24,000 bases of DNA from Parvibaculum sp. (GTDB lineage: Bacteria; Pseudomonadota; Alphaproteobacteria; Parvibaculales; Parvibaculaceae). This document shows, in pieces, positions 2,365 through 22,885 of this stretch. Every line of letters begins with the position of its first letter. The first letter of the stretch is position 1. The position numbers and the translations under genes were made by a program. The stretch covers positions 5,029-29,028 of the forward strand of contig JAHBYL010000034.1 of assembly GCA_019635955.1 (NCBI GenBank). Reading direction: 5' to 3'. Under the pieces are notes generated by a model. The model ran no database searches. It was given only the letters and a program-made list of their open reading frames with translations, and was not told where the DNA came from.

Positions 2365-3449
2365 TCAGGCGCTCGCCTCCATATCGCCATCCTCGACCTC
2401 ATCCGGTCTCACTTCGTCGAGAATCTTCTCGGCAATGAGGCCGGCATTCTGGCGGATCGCGGTCTCGATCTCGTTCGCCATGTCCGGATTCTCGCGCAGG
2501 AACTGCTTGGCATTCTCGCGGCCCTGGCCGATCCGCTGGCTGTTATAGGAGAACCAGGAGCCGGACTTCTCCACGATACCGGCCTTGACGCCGAGATCGA
2601 CAAGTTCGCCCATCTTGGAAATGCCCTCGCCATACATGATGTCGAACTCGACCTGCTTGAAGGGCGGCGCCACCTTGTTCTTCACGACCTTGACGCGGGT
2701 CTGGTTGCCGACCACCTCGTCGCGCTCCTTGATCGAGCCGATGCGGCGGATATCGAGGCGGACGGAGGCATAGAATTTCAGCGCATTGCCGCATCTGTCG
2801 CCGCTTCCGGGCTGCTGAACATGACGCCGATCTTCATGCGGATCTGGTTGATGAAGATCACCATGGTGTTCGACCGGAAATCGAGGCGGTGAGTTTGCGG
2901 AGCGCCCGGCCTATCAGGTACCTGAAGGCCGGGCAGCGAGTCACCCATTTCGCCTTCGAGTTCGGCTTTGGGCGTCAGCGCCGACCGAGTCGATCACGAG
3001 CACATCCACCGCGCCGGAGCGCACCAGCGTGTCCGCGATCTGAGCGCTCGCTCGCCCGTATCGGGCTGCGAAATCAGCAGTTCATCGAGCTGCACGCCGA
3101 GCCAGGGCATAGACGGGATCGAGCGCATGTTCCGCGTCGACAAAGCCGCAAATGCCGCCCCTCTTCTGGGCCCGGCAATGGTCTGGAGCTGCTGAGCGCG
3201 TCTTGCCCGGAGGATTCCGGCATTCGTAAATCCCGATCACGCATTGCGGGGCAGCCCGCCGATGCCGAGCGCAATGTCGAGGCCGAGCGAGCCTGTGGGA
3301 AACGGCTTCGATTTCCACCACCTGCTCGCGTTCTTGCTGAGCCGCATGATGGAACCCTTGCCGAACGACCGCTCGATCTGGTCAAGGCGGCGTCCAGCGC
3401 CTTCTTCTTGTCTAACGTCTTTCACGAGGCTCACTACATTCTTGGACAT
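2365..3449 (-). pseudogene. recA: recA, multiply frameshifted (recombinase A pseudogene, or locally mis-assembled gene)
   Basis: Conserved RecA peptides are spread over all three minus-strand frames, in the correct order. They run [11 protein letters not shown] / [13 protein letters not shown] / [18 protein letters not shown] / [11 protein letters not shown] / [17 protein letters not shown] / VIGIYE / PESSG / GKT / LQTIA / [22 protein letters not shown]. They continue [17 protein letters not shown] / [19 protein letters not shown] / [19 protein letters not shown] / ALRKLTASI / [24 protein letters not shown] / [55 protein letters not shown]...(to stop at 2365). Only the last ~140 codons are contiguous. 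The span is 1085 nt, which is not a multiple of 3. Track ORFs 3237..3449, 3082..3321, 3074..3385 and 2365..2715 are its fragments. Confidence 0.9.
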
Positions 3450-3509
3450 GCCGTTTTCCCTTTAACCACGCCGCCGAGTCGCGCAATGCGATTTTGATGG
3501 GAACAAACA

Positions 3510-4339: not shown

Positions 4340-6901
4340 CTACTTCGCCCCCATCACGTCCTTCACGGCAGCAGCAAGCTGCTTCAGGGAGAAGGGCTTC
4401 GGCAGGAAGTGGAATTCCTGGTCGGGGTCGAGGTTCTTGGCGAAGGCATCTTCCGCATAGCCCGAGACGAAGATGATCGGCGTGCCGGGGAGCAGCGTCT
4501 TCAGCTCCTTCGCCATGGTCGGCCCGTCCATATTGGGCATCACCACGTCGGACACGACGAGATCGATCCGCCCCTCGTGCTCGCGCACGACCTCGAGCGC
4601 CACCTCGCCGCTTTCGGCCTGCAGCACTTCATAGCCCCGCGTGGCGAGCGCGCGGGCGGCAAAGGTGCGCACGGCGTCCTCGTCCTCGACGAGCAGGATG
4701 GTCCCCTTGCCGGTGAGATCGGCCGTCTCGGCCGGCGCAGCGGCAGCGGCGGCGGCGGCTTCGGCTTCCGCCGCCTTTTCGGCCGGGGTCTCGATATAGC
4801 GCGGCAGATAGATGCGGAAGCTCGTGCCCTTCCCCACCGTCGAATAGGGGAAGATGAAGCCGCCCGTCTGCTTGATGATGCCATAGACGGTCGATAGCCC
4901 GAGCCCCGTCCCCTTCGAGGGGTCCTTCGTCGTGTAGAAGGGCTCGAAAATCTTGCCGAGATTTTCCTTCGGAATGCCGGTGCCCGTGTCCGACACCTCG
5001 ATCAGCACATATTCGGCATGCGGCATCAGCGGGTGGTCGAGCGCGCGGCTGTCCGCCTCCGACACATTCGCCGTGCGGATGGTGAGCCGCCCGCCATCCG
5101 GCATCGCGTCGCGCGCATTGACGGCGAGATTGATGATCACCTGCTCGAGCTGGTTCTGGTCGACCTTCACGAGGCCGAGATCGCGGCCATGCACGATCTT
5201 GAGCTCGACCTTTTCGGTGAGAAGCCGCGCCAGCAGGTTCTGCAGTTCCGCCAGCGCGTCCGTGAGCGAGAGAACCTTGGGGCGCAGCGTCTGCCGCCGC
5301 GAGAAGGCGAGCAATTGCCGCGTCAGGTTCGCCGCACGGTTTGCGTTCTGCTTGATCTGCACGACATCGGCGAAGGACGGGTCGCCCGCCTGGTGGCGCG
5401 CAAGCAGCAGGTCGCAGAAGCCGATGATGGCCGTCAGCAGATTGTTGAAGTCATGCGCCACGCCGCCCGCGAGCTGGCCCACCGCCTGCATCTTCTGCGA
5501 CTGGGCGAACTGCATCTCGAGCGATTTCTGCTCCGTCGCGTCGATCAGATAGACGACGACCGAGGCTTCCGCGCCCATATCGACGCTCGCGGCGTAAAGC
5601 TGCCCCACCCGGTCGAGATTGCGCGCCAGACGAACGTCGATCGCCCCGCCGCTCACCCCTTTCCGCGCGTTGCGGATCGCTTCTTCCGCCGCCTCGCGGT
5701 CCTCCTCCATCAGCAGGTCGGAGAGTTTCAGCCCGCGCTTCACCTCCGCCCCCGCATAGGCGAGGAAGGAGCGGTTCGCATTGTCGATGCGGCCTTCGCT
5801 GTCGACGGTCGCAATGCCGACCGGCGCATTGTTGAAGAAGCGGGCAAAGCGCATTTCGGCGTCGCGCGCCGTCTCTTCCGCCTTGTCGCCCGTGGTCCGG
5901 CTCAGCACCAGCGCGAATATACGCGCCTGCCCTGCCGCATCGGCCACGCGCGTCCGCAGCACGCGGACCGGAAAGGCCTTTCCGTCGGGCCCTCGCAGAT
6001 CGACGTCGAGCGGCAGCAGCTGCCCGCTCTGCGCGGCCTCGCCTTCCTCCAGCGCCGGCACCTCGCCAAGCACCAGCTCGTCGAGCTTCGTCCGCCGCTC
6101 GGTCAGAAGCCGAGGGTCCGATCCGAGCCATTCGCCGAGCCGCGCATTCATGAAGATGAGCCGGCTTTCGGCATCGGTCGCGAAAAAGCCGAACGGCGCA
6201 TGTTCGATATAGGAAAGGGACCGGCGATGCCGCTTTTCCGCCGAAGCCGCGCGCTCGCGCTCCACCGTGAGGTCGCGGAACAGCCAGACCGCGCCGCCCG
6301 ACGCCCCGCCCAGTGGCCGCACGATGGCGCGGTAGGTGCGCGTCACATTGCGCGGGCCGATCTCGATGTCCTCTTCGGCGGCAAAGCCCGTCCGCGCCGC
6401 CTGCGCCAGACGGAAGGACACTTCCGAGCCCTCGCCTTTCCCCGCCAGCAGCCGCTCGACCGGCACGACGCGGTCGCCGTCGAAGGCGCCGGTCAGGTCG
6501 CGCCAGGCGGCATTGGCGAAGAGAACGGAGCCCCGCCGGTCGGTCACATAGCAGGGGTCGGGAAGCGCGGAAAGCGCATCGGCGGCTGCAAGCGGCGACC
6601 GGCTGAACGCATCGGCCTGGCTGCCGGAAAGGCCGTAAAGCACCGCGCCGCCAATGGCGACGAGCCCGAACGCCGTCAGAAGACCGGGGAACCCGAAAAC
6701 GTGAACGCCGAGCGTATCGAGAAGCGTGGTGACGATGCCGAGCGCGACCGCCGCAATCACGACCCAGCGCCGGGCAGGCAGCGAGAAGCCGCCTTCGGAC
6801 GCGCGTCCGCCCTCGTCTCCGGCGCCGATTTCGGTTTCATTATAATCGGCCGGCGTATCGGCCATGGCCTGCTCCCGCGTCTCTCCGCCGGGCCGAATCA
6901 C
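4340..6901 (-). CDS. cckA: hybrid sensor histidine kinase/response regulator, CckA-like cell-cycle kinase
   Basis: 853-aa ORF. It has two N-terminal hydrophobic segments (VVIAAVALGIVTTLL, LLTAFGLVAIGGAVLYGL) followed by PAS-like repeats. Kinase motifs are the H-box GGVAHDFNNLLTAIIGFCDLLLARHQAGDPSF, the N-box NLAVNARDAMPDGG and the G-boxes DTGTGI / GTGLGLS. An Ala-rich linker leads to a C-terminal receiver (ILLVEDEDAVR...VVSDVVMPNMDG...KPF). The H-box region closely resembles what I recall of Caulobacter CckA. The start is either GTG 6901, overlapping the flhB stop by 4 nt, or ATG 6865 (MADTPADY). Confidence 0.85.
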   Translation of the reverse strand: MIRPGGETREQAMADTPADYNETEIGAGDEGGRASEGGFSLPARRWVVIAAVALGIVTTLLDTLGVHVFGFPGLLTAFGLVAIGGAVLYGLSGSQADAFSRSPLAAADALSALPDPCYVTDRRGSVLFANAAWRDLTGAFDGDRVVPVERLLAGKGEGSEVSFRLAQAARTGFAAEEDIEIGPRNVTRTYRAIVRPLGGASGGAVWLFRDLTVERERAASAEKRHRRSLSYIEHAPFGFFATDAESRLIFMNARLGEWLGSDPRLLTERRTKLDELVLGEVPALEEGEAAQSGQLLPLDVDLRGPDGKAFPVRVLRTRVADAAGQARIFALVLSRTTGDKAEETARDAEMRFARFFNNAPVGIATVDSEGRIDNANRSFLAYAGAEVKRGLKLSDLLMEEDREAAEEAIRNARKGVSGGAIDVRLARNLDRVGQLYAASVDMGAEASVVVYLIDATEQKSLEMQFAQSQKMQAVGQLAGGVAHDFNNLLTAIIGFCDLLLARHQAGDPSFADVVQIKQNANRAANLTRQLLAFSRRQTLRPKVLSLTDALAELQNLLARLLTEKVELKIVHGRDLGLVKVDQNQLEQVIINLAVNARDAMPDGGRLTIRTANVSEADSRALDHPLMPHAEYVLIEVSDTGTGIPKENLGKIFEPFYTTKDPSKGTGLGLSTVYGIIKQTGGFIFPYSTVGKGTSFRIYLPRYIETPAEKAAEAEAAAAAAAAPAETADLTGKGTILLVEDEDAVRTFAARALATRGYEVLQAESGEVALEVVREHEGRIDLVVSDVVMPNMDGPTMAKELKTLLPGTPIIFVSGYAEDAFAKNLDPDQEFHFLPKPFSLKQLAAAVKDVMGAK

Positions 6902-10405: not shown

Positions 10406-10454
10406 GGGCCCTTCATAAAGGGCTAACCAGCCAAACCCCCGAATTCTCTGGCCT

Positions 10455-10469
10455 TTAACCCGGCATTAA
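10455..10469 (+). promoter_or_regulatory. TTAA-N7-TTAA CtrA-type box upstream of fliO-fliP
   Basis: TTAAcccggcaTTAA(g) lies 70-85 bp upstream of the fliO ATG. Confidence 0.5.
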
Positions 10470-10477
10470 GGCTGACG

Positions 10478-10492
10478 CGGCAAATTCTTCCC
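10478..10492. promoter_or_regulatory. degenerate copy of the CGGCA-N5-TGCCG element
   Basis: The sequence is cggcaAATTCttccc, with two mismatches in the right arm. It sits inside a 14/14 direct repeat, acgcggcaaattct, found at 10388-10401 and 10475-10488. Confidence 0.3.
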
Positions 10493-10539
10493 GTTCCGGG
10501 CCGTCGGGCGGCGGCCTTCTGGGTGGGAAGCAAGTCAAA

Positions 10540-10917
10540 ATGGACTTCTCTGAAATCTTCCGCTTCGTGGCGGCGCTGGCCTTCATCATCGGCCTGATCG
10601 GCCTTTGCGCCATGGTCGCGAAGCGCTTCGGCCTCGCGCCGGGCATCACGTCGGCGGGCGCAAACCGCCGCGTCGGTATTGTCGAGGTAAGGCCGGTCGA
10701 TGCGAAACATCGCCTGCTTCTCATCCGCCGCGACGGCAAGGAACATCTGGTTCTGATCGGCGGCGAACATCCGCTGCTCATCGAAAGCGGCATCGACGCA
10801 CCCGCGGCGCCTGCGGCCGCGACGGAAACCGATGCGCCGCGTCCGGCTTTCACCGGTCCTGCCCATATCGTTCAGCTTCAGCGTTTCGTCGAATACATCA
10901 AGGAGCGCCGCGCGTGA
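10540..10917 (+). CDS. fliO: flagellar biosynthesis protein FliO
   Basis: 125 aa. It has a single N-terminal TM segment (FRFVAALAFIIGLIGLCAMV), then RRVGIVEVRPVDAKHRLLLIRRDGKEHLVLIGG, the FliO-family core. Its stop overlaps the fliP GTG (GTGA). Confidence 0.75.
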   Translation: MDFSEIFRFVAALAFIIGLIGLCAMVAKRFGLAPGITSAGANRRVGIVEVRPVDAKHRLLLIRRDGKEHLVLIGGEHPLLIESGIDAPAAPAAATETDAPRPAFTGPAHIVQLQRFVEYIKERRA

Positions 10918-11732: not shown

Positions 11733-14700
11733 TCAGTTGATCGCCGTCACTTCGTTGATCTTCAACGCGGCGATGAAACGGTCCAGCGTATCGATTGAGG
11801 CGACCCGGCTCGCCATGTCGCGGAAGGCGACGCCCTGCTTCACGATCGGTTCCGTGACCACGGCAAAGGCTTCGGCATCCGGGCTGCCGGCCATCGTTTC
11901 GCCGAACATGATCCGGAAACGGGCAAGCCCTTCTTCATCCTCCGCCAGCGAATAGGCTATGGCGCCGCGCATGATGAGCAGCCGTTCTTCACTGCTCGGC
12001 GGCTCGCCGCTCTTCCACCTCTCGCTGAGCGCCGTCTCGATGGCGGCACCTGCATCCGCCCAGCGCCCCGCGCTCCACAGCGTATCGGCCCGCAACCTGT
12101 CCACAAGCGGACCTTCCTTGCCCTCGATCAGGTCGAGCGCATGGTCGAATTGCTTGAGATCGGACAGCGCCCGCGCCTCGAGCAGCATCCGCCGTTCGGC
12201 CAGCGCTTCCGGCAGCAGGTTCTGCCGCGTCGCCCGGAGTGCCGCCAGCGCCCGGTCGGGCTTGTGATCGGTCAGGAAGATCGAGGCAAGCCGAGCCGCC
12301 ACCTGCGCCTTGGCAACGCCGCCATGCAGGCGGTTCGCCACCTGATAGTCGAGCAGATGCGCCGCCTGCTCCAGCAGGTCGACTTCCACCAGCCGCTCCG
12401 CCAGATCGCGGATCAGCTCGTCGCCCCGCTGGCCGATTGGCGTCAGCTCCTTGAACGCCTCGAAAAAGGCAAGCGCCTGAACGGGCGTCAGGTCGTCGAT
12501 CGACTTGCTGAGGAAATAATCGGCGAAGATTTCCGACATCCGCATGTTCATGCGATGCGCTTCGTCGCTGTCGGGAAAATTGTCGGTCGCGGTGCGCATC
12601 ACCTTCAGCGCCTCGCCGACCTTGCCTTCGGAAAGCCGCACCGCCGCAAGCTGCGTCAGGATATCGAGCTCGAGATCGTCGCCGCGCCAGGCATAGCGCA
12701 GGCTTTCGAGTTCCTTGCCGAAGGCCTCGTCGTCCATTTCGCCCGCGCGATGGAGCATCTGCGCCTTGCCGAAGCGCGCCCGCGCGGCGACCGGCGGATA
12801 ACCGCCTTCGATTGCGGCGTCGTAATAGACGAGCGCCCTGTCCTTGCGGTCATGCGCATCCGCGATCATCGCATTCACGAGCACGATCTGCGCATGGGCG
12901 CGCTGGCTCTGCGGTTCGCGCGGAAATCCGGCCGCATATTGTTCGGCGGCGGCAATGTCCTTCGTCTTGAGCGCGGCGATGGCGGCAAGCGAGCGGAATT
13001 CGGTCTGCAGCTCCTCGCCGAATGAATCGGAAATCGCACCTGCAAGTGCGAACTGCGCCCGCGCCTCGTCCCAATGGCCGAGCGAGGCGCGCGAAAGACC
13101 GCGCCATGCCGCCGCATGAGGCGAATTGTCGAGACCGGGGCCCGAAAGCTCGCGGATCGCCTCGACATGACGGCCGCTCAGCGCGGAGGAAACGCCGAGC
13201 GCCGCCTGAAAGGCTGGATCCGTTGCGAAGCGGAGATTGACCTGCCGCGCGGCAAGCAGCATCGCCCTCGCCTCCGGCGCAAGCCCATAGGCAAGCAGGA
13301 AGCGGCCATAGGCGAACCGGAGATCGCCGATCTCCTGCTCGCGCGCGCCCGCGAGCGCCGAAATGTAATGCTGGCGCCGGTCGTAATAGGTCTCGCCGGG
13401 CGCTTCGCGCCACTCGGCGAAGCGCATTTCGGCGGGCGAGGCCTGATCCACAAGCGGCGTCTCGCTTCCGTCCCGTCCGTCGCGGTGATCGTCCGCCGAG
13501 AGGGTAAGTCCGTCGACCCTTGTCACGATGACGCTGTCCGGCGCCGCCGCCACATTGAGATCGTCCGCCACCGGCACGATGGCCACGCCCTGCGCCGTTC
13601 TGAGCGCCTGGAACTCGACAAAGCTCCGCGGCATCTGCATCGCCTGTCCGGGGCCGATGGCTGTCACGGCGATGATATCGTCGCCGACCAGCGGATCGCG
13701 CACACGCAGCACCTTGCGCGGCGTGCGCAGGTCGAATTCGACAAGGCCGCGCCCATCGTCGCGCCACTTGCGGGAGATACCGATCGGCCTCCCGGTCGTC
13801 GGCAGCGTCTCGCCGGCCGAGATGCGCCAGCTCGCGCCTTCGTTGACGGCGCCGGTCAGCACACGGCCCTTCAGCGCAACGGTAAGCGCCACGCCTTCAT
13901 CGAGCTCGATCGCCTCGACGGCGCCCGCGAACGGACCTTCCGCCGGATCGGGAGCACCCGCCTGCGAAAGATCGACCGGCAGCGCGCGGTCGAAAATCAT
14001 CCAGAGCCGGTCCGCGCGCTCGAACACCGCGGCGCCGACGGGCTCCGGCCAGTCGACGAGAATATCCTTGCCATTGCGGCCATCGGCGAAACGCACCACC
14101 GCTTTGCCGGCGGGGCGCTTGCCTTCAGGCACCGGGCCGGCGGCGGCTTCGGGCTGTTCGGCCGGAGCCGCCTCCTCGGCGACCTTCGGCGCTTCCTCGG
14201 CGTCCGCCTCACGCGCCGCGGGCTCTTCCGCCGCCGGCGGCGTGATCTGCCGGGGCTCGCCCGCGCGCGCTGCGCTCTCCGGCCCGACGGCAGAAGCCGA
14301 ATGCAAAGGCTTTATGTCGAGAACGACGCTCAGGTCCTCGCGGAAATCGGAAACGGCAACGCCGGGCTTCAGCGTCAGCACGATCGCGAGACGTCCCTCA
14401 TGCTCCACCGCATTGATGCCCGCAAGGAACGGAGGAAGATCGGCCCGCAGCCGCGACAGATCGACCTTCGACGAACGGTCGAAGGTGATGGTGGCAAGGC
14501 CCTCGCGGTTCACCAGCGAATAGAGAACCGGCTGGTTCCAGTCGAACACGAGCCGCGTCATCTCCGGCAATGTCGCCGCGCGGACGACGAGGCCGGGCGG
14601 CGGCGCATCCGGCTCGACGATGCCCTGCGCCTTCGCGGCCATCTCCGCCGCGTCCGCTGCCTTCTTCGCCAGCCGCGCCTCTTCGATCCGCGCCAGCACC

Positions 14701-15179
14701 TCGGCGGGCAGCGGCGGCGGGGCGCCGGTCCAGCCGGGCGGCAGCAGGTCGACATAGACGGCGTTCTCCGCCGTCTTGGTATCGAGCGTGAAATCTGTAG
14801 TCAGCGCGGCGCGGATGTTGCGGCGGTCCTCGGACTGTCGGATCATCGCGAAATAGCGCGGCATCTCGCGCAGGAATGTGTCGCTGTCGATCTGCACGGC
14901 GCGCCCGAACTCGAGCACGAGCACACCTGAATTGACCGAGGCGCGATGCGAGGGAATACCGCCCGGGAAGGTGAAGATCAGACGGCCATAGCCGTCCTCC
15001 TCCCGCAATTCGACGCGCGTGTCGTTCGCGCTTGCCGGCTGCGAAAGGATCGTCAGCATCAGGAGGAAAGCGAACGCGGCAAATACCGCCAAGCGGCCGA
15101 ATATGCCGATTGTGTCGTCCGGACAACGATGTCGGATGAGCCGGTTCACGCGCTGCGCCCCTGAAGCTTCTGCCTGCAA
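11733..15179 (-). CDS. large secreted protein of unknown function: signal peptide, three or four AMIN-like beta-rich modules, a Pro/Ala/Glu-rich linker and a long TPR-like alpha-helical C-terminal half
   Basis: 1148-codon ORF with a coding-like composition; the antisense ORFs over it are Arg/Gly-rich shadows. The N-terminus …GRLAVFAAFAFLLMLTILSQPASA/ND looks like a Sec signal with an AxA cleavage site. Repeated modules are RVELREEDGYGRLIFTFPG…VYVDLLP, LVVRAATLPEMTRLVFDWNQPVLYSL…VVLDIKP and AVVRFADGRNGKDILVDWPEPV…. The C-terminal ~500 aa are helical repeats rich in A/L/R. The start is uncertain: TTG 15179 or GTG 15149. Confidence 0.8.
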   Translation of the reverse strand: MQAEASGAQRVNRLIRHRCPDDTIGIFGRLAVFAAFAFLLMLTILSQPASANDTRVELREEDGYGRLIFTFPGGIPSHRASVNSGVLVLEFGRAVQIDSDTFLREMPRYFAMIRQSEDRRNIRAALTTDFTLDTKTAENAVYVDLLPPGWTGAPPPLPAEVLARIEEARLAKKAADAAEMAAKAQGIVEPDAPPPGLVVRAATLPEMTRLVFDWNQPVLYSLVNREGLATITFDRSSKVDLSRLRADLPPFLAGINAVEHEGRLAIVLTLKPGVAVSDFREDLSVVLDIKPLHSASAVGPESAARAGEPRQITPPAAEEPAAREADAEEAPKVAEEAAPAEQPEAAAGPVPEGKRPAGKAVVRFADGRNGKDILVDWPEPVGAAVFERADRLWMIFDRALPVDLSQAGAPDPAEGPFAGAVEAIELDEGVALTVALKGRVLTGAVNEGASWRISAGETLPTTGRPIGISRKWRDDGRGLVEFDLRTPRKVLRVRDPLVGDDIIAVTAIGPGQAMQMPRSFVEFQALRTAQGVAIVPVADDLNVAAAPDSVIVTRVDGLTLSADDHRDGRDGSETPLVDQASPAEMRFAEWREAPGETYYDRRQHYISALAGAREQEIGDLRFAYGRFLLAYGLAPEARAMLLAARQVNLRFATDPAFQAALGVSSALSGRHVEAIRELSGPGLDNSPHAAAWRGLSRASLGHWDEARAQFALAGAISDSFGEELQTEFRSLAAIAALKTKDIAAAEQYAAGFPREPQSQRAHAQIVLVNAMIADAHDRKDRALVYYDAAIEGGYPPVAARARFGKAQMLHRAGEMDDEAFGKELESLRYAWRGDDLELDILTQLAAVRLSEGKVGEALKVMRTATDNFPDSDEAHRMNMRMSEIFADYFLSKSIDDLTPVQALAFFEAFKELTPIGQRGDELIRDLAERLVEVDLLEQAAHLLDYQVANRLHGGVAKAQVAARLASIFLTDHKPDRALAALRATRQNLLPEALAERRMLLEARALSDLKQFDHALDLIEGKEGPLVDRLRADTLWSAGRWADAGAAIETALSERWKSGEPPSSEERLLIMRGAIAYSLAEDEEGLARFRIMFGETMAGSPDAEAFAVVTEPIVKQGVAFRDMASRVASIDTLDRFIAALKINEVTAIN

Positions 15180-15225: not shown

Positions 15226-15241
15226 GTTAAGTGGGCCTTAA
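15226..15241 (-). promoter_or_regulatory. perfect CtrA box TTAA-N7-TTAAC upstream of the giant ORF
   Basis: The minus strand reads TTAAggcccacTTAAC. It sits in the 83-bp gap between the motE-like stop (15263) and the giant ORF start, 47-77 bp upstream of the candidate starts. Confidence 0.55.
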
Positions 15242-15262: not shown

Positions 15263-16006
15263 TTAGCTGGCCTTTTCGGCATTGCGAAAGGCCGGATCGG
15301 CCGAAGCGTCAGCACCCTGGGGAGCCGCCGCCGGTTCGGCGTTCAGATTCGTGCCGAGCGCAAGCTCCACCGTCAGGTCCTGAGCGGCCACGGGGTCCAT
15401 TTCCGACAGCACGCTTGCGAGCTTCCGGGGCTGCATGCGCTTGGCCACCTCGATCAGCACGCCCATGTCGAGCCGCTCGAAGATCCGCGCCGCGTCCTTC
15501 GGCTTCATGGTCTCGTACATCGTGACCACGCCCGCGAGACGAGCCTCGTTTTCCGCGTCCTGCTCGCCAATGCGTGTGCCGATGCGGGACTCGATCTCTT
15601 TCAGTTCCGCGATGCGCTCCTCGATCCGCTTTTCGGCGGCGGTGAGAAGCTGCTCGCGCGTATCGAGCGCCTGGGCGCGCCGGTCGAGTTCCTCGCGGCG
15701 GGCCGTAAGGCTTTCGAGAACCGTGGTTTCCGATTTGCTGAAACGCGACGTAATGCCTTCATCGGCCGGCATCGGTGCAGCCGCTTCTCCGCCTGCTGCG
15801 GCATCTTCGCCGGGCACCGCTTCGCCTTCCGGCGCGGCCTGCGTCTCCGGCTCCGCCTTCGGCGAACTTGCCTGCGCGACCGAAATCGCGTGTCCGCCCC
15901 CGCCCGCCGCAATATCGGCAAGCTTCAGCGTCAGCAGCAGCGAAGCGCAGAGAATGACGGTGGGCAGCAGCCGCAATCGGTTGAGGAAGCTCATGGCGCC
16001 GGTCAC
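15263..16006 (-). CDS. motE: MotE-family flagellar protein (MgtE_N-like C-terminal domain)
   Basis: 247 aa. It has an N-terminal signal or anchor (FLNRLRLLPTVILCASLLLTL), an acidic Pro/Ala-rich stretch and a coiled coil. The C-terminus VVTMYETMKPKDAARIFERLDMGVLIEVAKRMQPRKLASVLSEMDPVAAQDLTVEL resembles the MotE/FlbB family. The start is GTG 16006 (4-nt overlap with the upstream gene) or ATG 15994. Confidence 0.7.
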   Translation of the reverse strand: MTGAMSFLNRLRLLPTVILCASLLLTLKLADIAAGGGGHAISVAQASSPKAEPETQAAPEGEAVPGEDAAAGGEAAAPMPADEGITSRFSKSETTVLESLTARREELDRRAQALDTREQLLTAAEKRIEERIAELKEIESRIGTRIGEQDAENEARLAGVVTMYETMKPKDAARIFERLDMGVLIEVAKRMQPRKLASVLSEMDPVAAQDLTVELALGTNLNAEPAAAPQGADASADPAFRNAEKAS

Positions 16007-16449
16007 CCCGACTTCTTTTTCAAGGCTTCGAGAAGCTGGCTTGCCGCCCGCGCGGCCGTGGCGGCATCGCGCGGCGAAGCGGGCCGCGCAGCCTGCCGCG
16101 CCGGAGCGGATGATGCGGACACGGGCCTGTCCGCCCGGCCCAGCCGGTCGGCAATGCTGTTGCCGGATTCGAGCATCAGCGACAATTCATCGGCAAGCCC
16201 GCGCGCCCGGCGGATTCGCTCGGCAAGTTCCTCGCCGCTCTCCTCGCTCGCACGCTTCAATCCATCGATGGCACCCACGGCGCGCTGCGTCGCTGCATTG
16301 AGCTCCGCGACGAGCTCGCGCATCCCGTCCTGTCCGGCGCGCATCGCGCGGAGCTTGCGGTCGAGAATGGCGCAGTAGGCGATGGTCGCCGCCAGAAACA
16401 GGCAGACGACGATCTCGAGCACGGTGCTGAAAGGGAGTTCGCCCAGCAT
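16003..16449 (-). CDS. small bitopic membrane protein (TM segment, coiled coil, Pro/Ala/Ser-rich tail), possibly PflI-like
   Basis: 148 aa starting MLGELPFSTVLEIVVCLFLAATIAYCAILDRKLRAMR…. It begins 2 nt after the fliM stop and overlaps the motE-like start. The upstream part of track ORF 16003..17172 is an out-of-frame read-through over fliM. The architecture matches my recollection of Caulobacter PflI, which is encoded beside fliM; that match is unverified. Confidence 0.6.
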   Translation of the reverse strand: MLGELPFSTVLEIVVCLFLAATIAYCAILDRKLRAMRAGQDGMRELVAELNAATQRAVGAIDGLKRASEESGEELAERIRRARGLADELSLMLESGNSIADRLGRADRPVSASSAPARQAARPASPRDAATAARAASQLLEALKKKSG

Positions 16450-16451
16450 GG

Positions 16452-17546
16452 TCACTTGCCTCCGCCCGACATGTTCATCTCGGGAATTTTCGTTTCGATG
16501 GCGGGCGCTTCCGCGCGCTTGTGATGGCGAATGCCCTGCTCCACGCGCACCGCGACATGATTGCCGACACGGCCCATCTTCCCCGTGCCGAGGCGAATGC
16601 CGCCGCAGCGCAGGTCGACCGAGCAGTCGGGACCGTTGTTCAGCATGAGCGTCTGGCCGGGCACGAAATTCATCACGTCCCGCAGCGTCAGCTTCTGTTC
16701 GTCGAGCACCGCTTCGAGCGCAACCTTGGTGGACCAGAGTTCGGTCGCGAGATGGCTTTCCCAGATCGAATCGCGCCCGAATTTCTCGCCCATGAACATC
16801 TGCAGCAGAAGTTCGCGGATCGGCTCGAGCGTCGCATAGGGGAGCATCATCTCGATGCGTCCGCCGCGGTCTTCCATGTCGACGCGCAACCGCACGAGAA
16901 TGGCCGCGTTGGCTGGGCGCGCGATCGCCGCAAAGCGCGGATTGGTCTCCATCCGGTCGAATTCGAGCGTGACCGGCGACAGCGGCTCGAATGCCGCCTG
17001 CACGTCCTGCAGCACGACCTCGATCATGCGCTGGACGAGATTGAGTTCGATGGTCGTATAGGGCCGGCCTTCGATGCGCATGGCCGCCGTGCCGCGCCGT
17101 CCGCCCAGAAGCACGTCGACGATCGAATAGATCAGGTTCGAGTCGACCGTGAACATGCCGTAATTGTCCCACTGCTTCGCGCGGAAAACCGCAAGAATGG
17201 CGGGCAACGGAATCGAATTGAGATAATCGCCGAAGCGGATCGAAGACACGTTGTCGAGCGACACTTCGACGTTGTCGGAGGTGAAGTTGCGCAGCGAAAC
17301 CGTCATCAGGCGCACCAGCCTGTCGAAGACGATCTCGAGCATCGGCAGGCGCTCATAGGAAACGAGCGCCGAATTGACGATGGCGTCGATGCCATGCCGT
17401 TCCGGAACCGTGTCCTCATCGACCTCGAAGCCGAGAAGACTGTCGATCTCGTCCTGGTTGAGAACGCGCTCGGGCGCCTTCGAAGCGGCTTCCGTCGCTG
17501 CGGCAAGCACGTCTTTGGCGATATCCTGGGTTTCTTCGGCGCTCAT
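16452..17546 (-). CDS. fliM: flagellar motor switch protein FliM
   Basis: 364 aa. It has an N-terminal CheY-P-binding-type motif, LNQDEIDSLLG. The central and C-terminal FliM regions include …FDRLVRLMTVSLRNFTSDNVEVSL… and …LMLNNGPDCSVDLRCGGIRLGTGKMGRVGNHVAVRV. Confidence 0.95.
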   Translation of the reverse strand: MSAEETQDIAKDVLAAATEAASKAPERVLNQDEIDSLLGFEVDEDTVPERHGIDAIVNSALVSYERLPMLEIVFDRLVRLMTVSLRNFTSDNVEVSLDNVSSIRFGDYLNSIPLPAILAVFRAKQWDNYGMFTVDSNLIYSIVDVLLGGRRGTAAMRIEGRPYTTIELNLVQRMIEVVLQDVQAAFEPLSPVTLEFDRMETNPRFAAIARPANAAILVRLRVDMEDRGGRIEMMLPYATLEPIRELLLQMFMGEKFGRDSIWESHLATELWSTKVALEAVLDEQKLTLRDVMNFVPGQTLMLNNGPDCSVDLRCGGIRLGTGKMGRVGNHVAVRVEQGIRHHKRAEAPAIETKIPEMNMSGGGK

Positions 17547-17570: not shown

Positions 17571-18074
17571 TTACTGGACGATGATTTCCTTGAAGAGCAC
17601 GTCCTTGACGAGCGGCTCTTGCGTCGCAAGGGCAAGCCGGCGCATCAGCTCTTCGCGGAGATTGAGCATGCCCTGCGAGCCCTCGAGATCTTCCGGGCGC
17701 AATTCGCGGAGGAATGTCTGGAAGCCGTCCATGATGCGCGGCATCGCCGCCTCGATCAGCGGTACGGATTCCTTGTCGCGCACCTGCAGCGACACGCGCA
17801 TCTTGAGATAATGCTGCGGCGGCGGGCCGGCGAGATTTACGAGGAAATCCGGCATATCGTAGTAGACGGGCGCAGCCACCACGGGCGCCACCTCTTCCGG
17901 CTCGGCGCTGCCGCCGAGAATGCCCGACATATAGACGCCCACGCCCGCTCCGATCAGCAGGAGCAGCGGCAGCCCCACGTAAAGCACGAGCACCTTGCCC
18001 GCCAGCCTGCTCTTCGCAGGCGGCGCAGCACCTTCCACATCGTCTTCTGAAATGTCGGCGTCCACTGCGGCCAT
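17571..18074 (-). CDS. fliL: flagellar basal body-associated protein FliL
   Basis: 167 aa. It has a single TM segment (VLVLYVGLPLLLLIGAGVGVY), then YYDMPDFLVNLAG…YLKMRVSLQV…FLRELRPEDLEGSQGMLNLREEL…VKDVLFKEIIVQ, typical of FliL. Confidence 0.9.
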   Translation of the reverse strand: MAAVDADISEDDVEGAAPPAKSRLAGKVLVLYVGLPLLLLIGAGVGVYMSGILGGSAEPEEVAPVVAAPVYYDMPDFLVNLAGPPPQHYLKMRVSLQVRDKESVPLIEAAMPRIMDGFQTFLRELRPEDLEGSQGMLNLREELMRRLALATQEPLVKDVLFKEIIVQ

Positions 18075-21751: not shown

Positions 21752-21783
21752 AAAAACGCGGCTCCGAAAGAGCCGCGTTTTTT
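21752..21783. terminator. bidirectional intrinsic terminator between convergent flgH and dksA
   Basis: The sequence aaaaaCGCGGCTCcgaaaGAGCCGCGtttttt has an 8-bp GC stem and a 5-nt loop, with an A-run on the left and a T-run on the right. Confidence 0.75.
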
Positions 21784-21808
21784 GTGTGTCCCGGGTGAAG
21801 TCTTCCGT

Positions 21809-22225
21809 TCAGTCGTCGCGATAGACCTTCTCGCGCCGCTCATGCCGCTCCTGGGCCTCGATCGACAGCGTCGCGATCGGGCGCGCGTCGAGCCGTTTCA
21901 GACTGATCGGCTCGCCCGTCTCCTCGCAATAGCCATAGGTGCCCTCGTCGATCCGGCGGATGGCCGCGTCGATCTTCGCGATCAGCTTGCGCTGGCGGTC
22001 GCGCGTGCGCAGCTCGAGGGAGCGTTCGGTTTCGGAAGAAGCGCGGTCGGCGAGGTCTGGATGCTGAACCGAGTCGTCCTGCAGGTGCTGCAGCGTCTCG
22101 CGGTTCTCGACCAGAATGTCCTCTTTCCACTTCTCGAGCTTGCGGCGGAAATATTCCTTCTGCCGCTTGTTCATGAACGGTTCGTCGTCTGACGGCATAT
22201 AGCCCTTGGGCAAACGCACGGCCAT
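21809..22225 (-). CDS. dksA: RNA polymerase-binding transcription factor DksA (single-Cys variant)
   Basis: 138 aa; …FMNKRQKEYFRRKLEKWKEDIL…DLADRASSETERSLELRTRDRQRKLIAKIDAAIRRIDEGTYGYCEETGEPISLKRLDARPIATLSIEAQERHERRE. It has the DksA coiled-coil tip (the 'D..A' region) and a C-terminal domain in which only the first of the four Zn-finger Cys residues is retained. Confidence 0.9.
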   Translation of the reverse strand: MAVRLPKGYMPSDDEPFMNKRQKEYFRRKLEKWKEDILVENRETLQHLQDDSVQHPDLADRASSETERSLELRTRDRQRKLIAKIDAAIRRIDEGTYGYCEETGEPISLKRLDARPIATLSIEAQERHERREKVYRDD

Positions 22226-22870: not shown

Positions 22871-22885
22871 TTAAAGCCGCGTTAA
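22871..22885. promoter_or_regulatory. TTAA-N7-TTAA CtrA-type box in the fliX/flgI divergent region
   Basis: TTAAagccgcgTTAA lies 62-76 bp upstream of the fliX ATG. Confidence 0.5.

Follow-up and report, generated by a model that had tools for sequence, protein, structure and literature searches.

The proteins MotE, CC_2059, FlgY and FlbB have been argued to form the so-called E-ring of the flagellar motor, with CC_2058, MotK, MotC, PflA and FlcB as its partners with tetratricopeptide repeats (TPR) (Tachiyama et al. 2025; Feng et al. preprint, PMC11870540; 2026 review, PMC13023049). The present analysis concerns an open reading frame (ORF) of 1148 codons found at positions 11733–15179 on the minus strand of a 24,000-nucleotide stretch of Parvibaculum sp. 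DNA (contig JAHBYL010000034.1); this whole stretch is referred to below as the window. The encoded protein very likely belongs to the PflA/MotK/FssB family. It is also probable that, as the Parvibaculum member of the alphaproteobacterial PflA/MotK/FssB family, it is a periplasmic accessory protein of the flagellar motor that works in the way proposed below.

According to Velez-Gonzalez et al. (2024; PMC10954123), MotK of Cereibacter sphaeroides is composed of a signal peptide, an N-terminal domain modelled as AMIN (AmiC/PilQ), disordered Pro-rich regions and a TPR-like domain, and its gene is the last in the order fliL-pflI-motE-motA-motK. The protein is found in the periplasm at the pole and interacts with MotE and MotB2; flagella are assembled without it but do not rotate. 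Its fusion to superfolder green fluorescent protein (MotK-sfGFP) was located at the flagellated pole, and this localization depended on MotA2/MotB2. The same text proposes CC_2058 of Caulobacter as a distant MotK homologue. CC_2058 was named FssB by Hershey et al. (2021; PMC7885107), who described it as a protein with a Sec signal and a TPR domain that is needed for stator activity; deletion of fssB resulted in flagellated but paralysed cells and abolished stator-dependent surface signalling.

PflA of Campylobacter jejuni and Helicobacter pylori (PDB 9HMF), which forms the spokes of the proximal disk, starts with a single beta-sandwich, which an unstructured linker connects to 16 TPR motifs (Drobnic et al. 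2025; PMC12222027). There are 17 such radial spokes, which position the stators together with the PflB rim and FliL (PMC12222027). PflA is a partner of the FlgY E-ring and scaffolds the stators, and its beta-sandwich binds PflB, a second TPR protein that most alphaproteobacteria lack (preprint PMC11870540). MotC of Sinorhizobium meliloti and FlcA/FlcB of Borrelia burgdorferi, compared here by their descriptions, are TPR-rich proteins of the periplasm that partner MotE and FlbB, respectively, and that are required for rotation or for the assembly of the stator/collar (PMC13023049). MotC consists mainly of TPR repeats without the additional AMIN domain of MotK (review PMC13023049), and the relationship of the Borrelia collar proteins has been proposed in the literature from structure only.

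Homology to MotK-position proteins and conservation of the locus

The window protein combines three features of the family, namely a gene beside a MotE-type gene in a flagellar cluster, a layout of beta-sandwich, linker and superhelix, and homology to a member identified by its gene position. Such members (X) were located on a plasmid of Paroceanicella profunda, where the gene order is fliL-x-motE-motA-X and X is 883 aa long, and in Rhodobacter capsulatus, where fliL is followed by genes for proteins of 131 aa and 206 aa, motA and an X of 749 aa. The window protein and the Paroceanicella protein showed no significant similarity in pairwise BLASTP (E 0.13); their relationship is visible by profile–profile comparison only. 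Using hhalign, the family of the window protein was matched to 20 Paroceanicella-type sequences with a probability of 99.6% (E 7e-24) and to a family of 33 Paracoccaceae sequences, including that of R. capsulatus, with a probability of 99.8% (E 1.5e-27, 666 columns). In the 666-column alignment, the second of the N-terminal beta modules described below is matched to the one N-terminal domain that MotK-type proteins possess, helical domain is aligned with helical domain, and modules 3 and 4 appear as an insertion relative to the MotK-type proteins. A homologue search started from Paenirhodobacter returned Rhodobacter capsulatus, R. lacus, R. maris and others, and no Cereibacter.

Supplementary Table 5 of the 2025 preprint by Feng et al. 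(PMC11870540) lists "potential PflA" proteins, including WP_143710221.1 of Parvibaculum lavamentivorans DS-1 (1120 aa), WP_010919921.1 of C. crescentus (958 aa), WP_041669865.1 of C. sphaeroides (652 aa) and WP_138578638.1 of Paroceanicella (883 aa). Exact-sequence look-up revealed that the last of these is the Paroceanicella protein used in the BLASTP and profile comparisons, and that WP_143710221.1 is the homologue P0021, with 63% identity to the window protein across 96% of its length; therefore, an orthologue of the window gene has already been catalogued. The original prediction, made from the DNA letters, stated that the protein matches no flagellar protein known by name to that reader and presented it as a candidate unrecognised component. 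This does not hold, because the family is known as FssB (2021; PMC7885107), MotK (2024; PMC10954123) and PflA, and the P. lavamentivorans orthologue stands in the table of PMC11870540. The closest homologues, which are Parvibaculum proteins, are labelled "hypothetical" or "tetratricopeptide repeat protein".

FssB (CC_2058/CCNA_02137, Q9A6M9, WP_010919921.1) shares with the window protein the gene position (fliL-fliM-pflI-CC_2059-CC_2058); its Sec signal and TPR domain have counterparts in the predicted signal peptide and the TPR-like domain of the window protein. An AMIN-like N-terminal domain has been reported for FssB, and its partner gene is of the MotE/FlgY type with a membrane helix, as in the window. 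FssB is 958 aa long, compared with approximately 1120–1148 aa for the window protein, and orthology of the two is suggested by synteny and by the shared listing in Table 5. MotK (Q3IY86, WP_041669865.1, 652 aa) resembles the window protein in its AMIN-like domain, disordered Pro-rich linkers, TPR-like domain and motE neighbour, and has a signal peptide like the one predicted for the window protein. MotK-type proteins, encoded after motA, differ in having one beta module instead of three AMIN-like modules and a fourth beta domain; in the window, the motE-like gene and the large ORF are not separated by a motA.

The family comprises 1828 clusters at 50% identity (E ≤ 1e-30), mostly of 1100–1400 aa, and relatives are encoded in at least 537 stretches of the GTDB species-genome collection, from genomes such as those of Parvibaculaceae, Bradyrhizobium, Rhodopseudomonas, Afipia, Xanthobacteraceae, Stappiaceae, Tepidamorphaceae and Rhizomicrobium. 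For the analysis of synteny 80 loci were fetched, two of which were cut at the gene, leaving 78 informative loci. The order fliL-fliM-DUF6468-motE-X was kept in 73 of them, from many alphaproteobacterial families, and three more retained the downstream fliP-flgB-fliR-flhB block, so that the gene lies beside flagellar genes in 76/78. Tight linkage to flagellar genes, whose absence from other genomes the original prediction had named as a refutation, is supported. The two other loci had no flagellar neighbours within the flank; for one of these, a metagenome-assembled genome of Robiginitomaculum, this was confirmed by a Pfam scan. The homologue in that genome (L068, 5917–9330, 1137 aa) is surrounded by a cytochrome c gene, a GntR regulator, an oxidoreductase and a Band 7 gene, and it is either a relocated copy or part of a mis-binned contig.

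More distant homologues were revealed by a tblastn search of plasmids, namely in Erythrobacter (E 1e-24) and Azospirillum oryzae (E 5e-13), and these share only the helical domain with the window protein. In the plasmid flagellar cluster of Erythrobacter aureus the homologue follows fliL-fliM-DUF6468; in that of A. oryzae a homologue of 796 aa is encoded directly upstream of motA-motB and was matched by hhalign to residues 581–1140 of the window protein with a probability of 99.8% (E 1.2e-28). The occurrence in flagellar clusters and the hhalign match to the Azospirillum protein indicate that the helical domain is specific to this family and linked to the flagellum, as opposed to a generic TPR. 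The same plasmid search with the window protein gave no Rhodobacterales match. In the annotation, the E. aureus homologue (L081, 5322–7836) is represented by two ORFs of 76 aa and 548 aa. Together with a tblastn match that begins upstream of the annotated start, this suggests that the gene is split or mis-started. A second gene of the fliL family lies on the opposite strand just before it. The plasmid pMaD5 of Marinovum algicola (L083, 3734–6780) carries a fliL-fliM-pflI-like-FlbB(MotE) cluster with no TPR gene after the FlbB/MotE gene, which is followed by a small membrane protein gene and then a hipA module. The MotE partner of pMaD5 must be encoded elsewhere or missing.

Domain structure and fold of the window protein

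The full-length AlphaFold2 model was built on 39 homologues and had a mean predicted local distance difference test score (pLDDT) of 84, and a separate model of residues 50–560 had a pLDDT of 87. All window coordinates in this paragraph refer to the minus strand. The first AMIN-like beta-sandwich module occupies residues 52–150 (AlphaFold2 55–146; 14730–15026) and is joined by a long charged helix rich in Ala, Lys and Glu (residues 159–184 in AlphaFold2; 14628–14705) to AMIN-like module 2, residues 192–293 (AlphaFold2 197–291; 14301–14606), which contains the motif TRLVFDW...VVLDIKP. A disordered Pro/Ala/Glu-rich linker (residues 294–349; 14133–14300; AlphaFold2 pLDDT below 50) leads to AMIN-like module 3, residues 355–460 (AlphaFold2 360–456; 13800–14117). 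Then come a fourth beta domain, residues 462–560 (AlphaFold2 468–554; 13500–13796), a short second Pro/Ala/Glu-rich disordered linker at residues 562–579 (AlphaFold2), and a C-terminal TPR-like helical-repeat domain of approximately 30 helices, residues 581–1140 (AlphaFold2 587–1139; 11760–13439).

Comparison of sub-alignments by hhalign showed that modules 1–3 are mutually homologous (probability 90–98%, E 1e-6 to 4e-14), while module 4 gave no match to any of them. The possibility of four copies of one beta repeat was therefore rejected. The helical domain of approximately 550 residues, common to the MotK-type, Azospirillum and Erythrobacter proteins, is the family-defining core. Its residues 900–1005 (12165–12482) form the most conserved block of the family, with a cluster of invariant columns and the consensus LTPIGQRGDE..LAERLV.VDLL.QAA.LL.YQV.NRL.G.AKAQVAARLA, and are a candidate partner-binding surface. 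The long N-terminus, with its three AMIN-like modules and conserved fourth beta domain, is the only mildly unusual feature and is common to the whole long-form family.

The best PDB match of the N-terminal model in a Foldseek search was 3jc8_Qa, chain Q of the Myxococcus pilus machine (E 8e-5), which we take to be M. xanthus PilQ; PilQ carries tandem AMIN domains. It was followed by the AMIN domain of AmiC (4bin; probability 1.0, root-mean-square deviation 3.1 Å over 108 columns) and then by Neisseria PilQ. Like the AMIN domain (PF11741; AmiC 4BIN, PilQ), the modules are eight-stranded beta-sandwiches of approximately 100 residues arranged in tandem as in PilQ, and the first-strand motif xTRLVFDW is present. 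By fold they can be superposed on AmiC/PilQ, but the gathering score of Pfam is not reached, and peptidoglycan binding remains putative. Among the 39 homologues, the AMIN-like family PF24837 was found in 10, always below threshold (best 25.1 bits, cut-off 27), and AMIN PF11741 in three, also below threshold. TPR_2 passes the threshold in some homologues (35.5 bits vs 27), and the full model matches many TPR solenoids in the PDB (E 1e-6 to 1e-9). Searched by sequence with the family profile, the PDB yielded only generic or designed TPR proteins and no family member; 'TPR-like' is the safe term for the helical domain.

The top match of the full model among 350,542 PDB chains was 9hmf_K, a chain of the C. 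jejuni periplasmic scaffold (E 6e-11). This chain has 773 residues, which fits residues 16–788 of PflA, and is most likely PflA judging by its length. PflA shares the layout of beta-sandwich, linker and long TPR superhelix, while having one beta-sandwich instead of three AMIN-like modules and a fourth beta domain.

The by-eye domain description given in the original prediction proved to be essentially correct, with two adjustments. Where it counted three or four AMIN-like modules, three related ones were found and the fourth beta domain is unrelated; the Pro/Ala/Glu-rich spacer does exist (residues 294–349), but it separates modules 2 and 3 and does not follow all the beta modules. The TPR-like helical C-terminus, estimated at about 500 residues, corresponds to the all-helical repeat domain of about 550 residues in the model. 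A Sec-type signal peptide ending in PASA|ND had also been read, and the n-h-c pattern can be recognised in the translation. The comparison with periplasmic motor scaffolds of the PflA/PflB type was apt in view of the top fold match, and the guess of a periplasmic motor scaffold appears right in kind, as suggested by the MotK-type profile homology and the PflA-like fold.

Gene neighbourhood, CtrA box and gene model

On the minus strand the genes follow one another in the order fliL (17571–18074; PF03748, E 1e-21), fliM (16452–17546; PF02154, E 7e-69), a DUF6468 gene at the pflI position (16003–16449; E 2e-23), whose start overlaps the fliM stop, a MotE/FlgY/FlbB-type gene (15263–16006) and the large ORF, with fliP converging on the 3' end of the latter. 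The MotE-like neighbour encodes a protein of 247 aa with an N-terminal membrane helix and weak matches to MgtE_N (3.6e-5) and to the spirochaete collar protein FlbB (NCBIfam, 1.4e-9), and is the probable E-ring partner of the large protein. These Pfam and NCBIfam matches agree with the previously proposed position after fliL, fliM, PflI-like and motE-like genes.

The gap of 83 bp between the motE-like gene and the large ORF contains a CtrA-type box, TTAAGTGGGCCTTAA (15227–15241, listed without a strand), located 48 bp upstream of the ORF. It is a perfect TTAA-N7-TTAA box, and three such boxes occur in the window against 0.01 expected; across many genera, 41 of 69 related loci have a full box between the motE-like and the large gene. 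Given this excess and the same position in 41/69 loci, the box noted in the original prediction is real and conserved. It probably belongs to the large gene's own cell-cycle/flagellar promoter. A scan around the large gene for promoter and terminator consensus sequences found nothing above chance. The other two perfect boxes are located at 10455–10469, near the divergent flgB-fliP gap, and at 22871–22885, just upstream of the flgI ORF; the three together suggest that the whole flagellar cluster may be under CtrA control.

The ORF was confirmed on the minus strand as 15179→11733 with a TTG start, and it is listed as encoding a periplasmic flagellar protein of the PflA/MotK/FssB type. The start codon is uncertain: besides TTG 15179, GTG 15149 and TTG 15092 are possible, and the public gene models of near-identical homologues are in conflict. 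The GTG start corresponds to a metagenomic homologue of 1138 aa with 98% identity, and NCBI models of the same homologue cluster, of 1119 aa, correspond to TTG 15092. The signal peptide read from the translation is retained with any of the three starts, with the hydrophobic core LAVFAAFAFLLMLTIL followed by PASA|ND. The predicted Sec-type signal peptide covers residues 1–51 (15027–15179, minus strand) and includes an Arg-rich n-region, a hydrophobic core and the ASA|ND motif; in the AlphaFold2 model of the window protein, a single N-terminal helix (27–45) is found there.

Several other genes of the window were recorded. A hybrid histidine kinase of 853 aa with three PAS domains, HisKA, HATPase_c and a receiver is encoded directly downstream of flhB (4340–6901, minus strand), and its domain layout would fit a candidate CckA, the kinase upstream of CtrA. 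The recA gene (2365–3450, minus strand) is broken: the ORF covers only RecA_C and the end of the RecA domain, and the N-terminal two thirds can be traced solely by hopping across three frames with several stops. A pseudogene is one explanation, and an assembly stretch that is indel-rich or chimeric is the more likely one; the other examined genes of the window read intact, unlike recA. The ORFs 10423–10866 (minus strand, 147 aa) and 21782–22192 (plus strand, 136 aa) of the flagellar region have no Pfam match.

Proposed role, alternative explanations and significance

The homologues suggest, as the most likely role, that the protein links the MotE/FlgY E-ring, the stators and the peptidoglycan as a spoke or anchor in the periplasm. 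The gene would be transcribed from its own CtrA-box promoter together with class II flagellar genes, and the protein would be exported by Sec. The helical-repeat domain could then act as a radial spoke or adaptor that docks on the E-ring built by the neighbouring MotE/FlgY-type protein and makes contact with the periplasmic portion of MotB, so as to hold, recruit or activate stator units around the rotor. The AMIN-like sandwiches on their flexible linkers would fix this assembly to the peptidoglycan or to a further partner, as the PflA beta-sandwich does with PflB. Loss of the window protein is predicted to result in assembled but paralysed flagella; MotB plug mutations, which rescued the related fssA mutant of Caulobacter, might partly offset it.

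A number of observations weigh against this interpretation. The experimental results come from FssB, MotK and PflA only, and not from long-form members (~1100–1250 aa) such as the window protein. The match to PflA is at fold level only, with 9% identity and a template modelling score (TM-score) of 0.13–0.18, and TPR solenoids match many unrelated proteins. In the profile and structure checks proposed in the original prediction, the AlphaFold2 fold is AMIN-like and TPR-like, but the Pfam/NCBIfam scan of the window protein gave no AMIN match at E ≤ 1 and Pfam TPR models matched it at sub-threshold level only. The AMIN-like assignment therefore rests on the fold and on the sub-threshold matches in 10/39 homologues. 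The links to CC_2058 and to C. sphaeroides MotK are drawn from gene position, published tables and relatives, with no direct alignment. Peptidoglycan binding by AMIN-like domains is putative for MotK, FssB and PflA as well, and no MotK binding to FliL2 was detectable (PMC10954123). Finally, no flagellar gene lies within 6 kb of the full-length Robiginitomaculum homologue.

This last homologue, placed among unrelated genes, could also be brought forward for a generic periplasmic TPR/AMIN protein, serving for example type IV pili or the cell wall, that stands beside flagellar genes by chance. The best N-terminal fold matches are indeed PilQ and AmiC, and the TPR matches are unspecific. Nevertheless, the probability of such a coincidence appears almost negligible, given the conserved flagellar neighbourhood in 76/78 informative loci from several taxonomic orders and in plasmid-borne flagellar clusters, the conserved CtrA box of flagellar type and the specific profile homology to MotK-position proteins; moreover, no pilus or amidase gene was found among the scanned ORFs of the window. 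A function in polar placement, with the protein as a landmark that positions the flagellum instead of a stator scaffold, was among the roles offered in the original prediction. A PflI-type (DUF6468) gene is found two genes upstream of the large gene; PMC10954123 reports that Caulobacter PflI has been implicated in flagellar positioning and cites a work (reference 115) whose title proposes that AMIN domains localize periplasmic complexes. In the same article, however, MotK localization depends on the stator and not the reverse, and in the available descriptions the fssB and motK mutants build non-rotating flagella, with no misplacement phenotype mentioned. The placement idea has no support and is considered highly improbable.

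It is also improbable, to a lesser degree, that the protein is mainly a stabilizer or chaperone of its MotE/FlgY-type neighbour, or the neighbour of it, and not a load-bearing part of the motor. MotE is degraded in C. sphaeroides without MotK (PMC10954123), and MotE of S. meliloti was first read as a chaperone of the TPR protein MotC (PMC13023049). Such a function would be hard to reconcile with the MotA2/MotB2-dependent location of MotK-sfGFP at the flagellated pole, with the imaging of PflA in situ as spokes (PMC12222027), or with the conservation, across 1828 clusters, of three AMIN-like modules together with some 550 residues of helical domain. Together, the stator-dependent polar localization of MotK, the imaged PflA spokes, the paralysed but flagellated mutants and the synteny counts leave these alternatives with little weight, and the spoke or anchor role remains preferred.

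The window protein is thus an ordinary addition to an already described family, not an unrecognised component, and it is very probably part of the flagellar motor. Parvibaculaceae and many other alphaproteobacteria possess, in tightly conserved form, an E-ring/spoke module of a MotE/FlgY-type protein and a PflA/MotK/FssB-type TPR protein. In the cited papers, the long alphaproteobacterial proteins were joined to those at the MotK position mainly on the basis of predicted structure and gene position, and the present comparison adds profile-level sequence support. A bolder and rather unlikely idea is that the long form, which also occurs in Bradyrhizobium, Rhodopseudomonas and Xanthobacteraceae, among others, might build an extra peptidoglycan-anchored periplasmic ring or cage and do the work of both PflA (spoke) and PflB (rim); if true, this would be an elaboration of the motor not yet imaged in Hyphomicrobiales or Parvibaculales. 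The binding partner of the AMIN-like modules and the effect of the spokes on the stator are questions already posed in the 2024–2026 literature. Thousands of "hypothetical" or "tetratricopeptide repeat" proteins encoded at this position could receive names.

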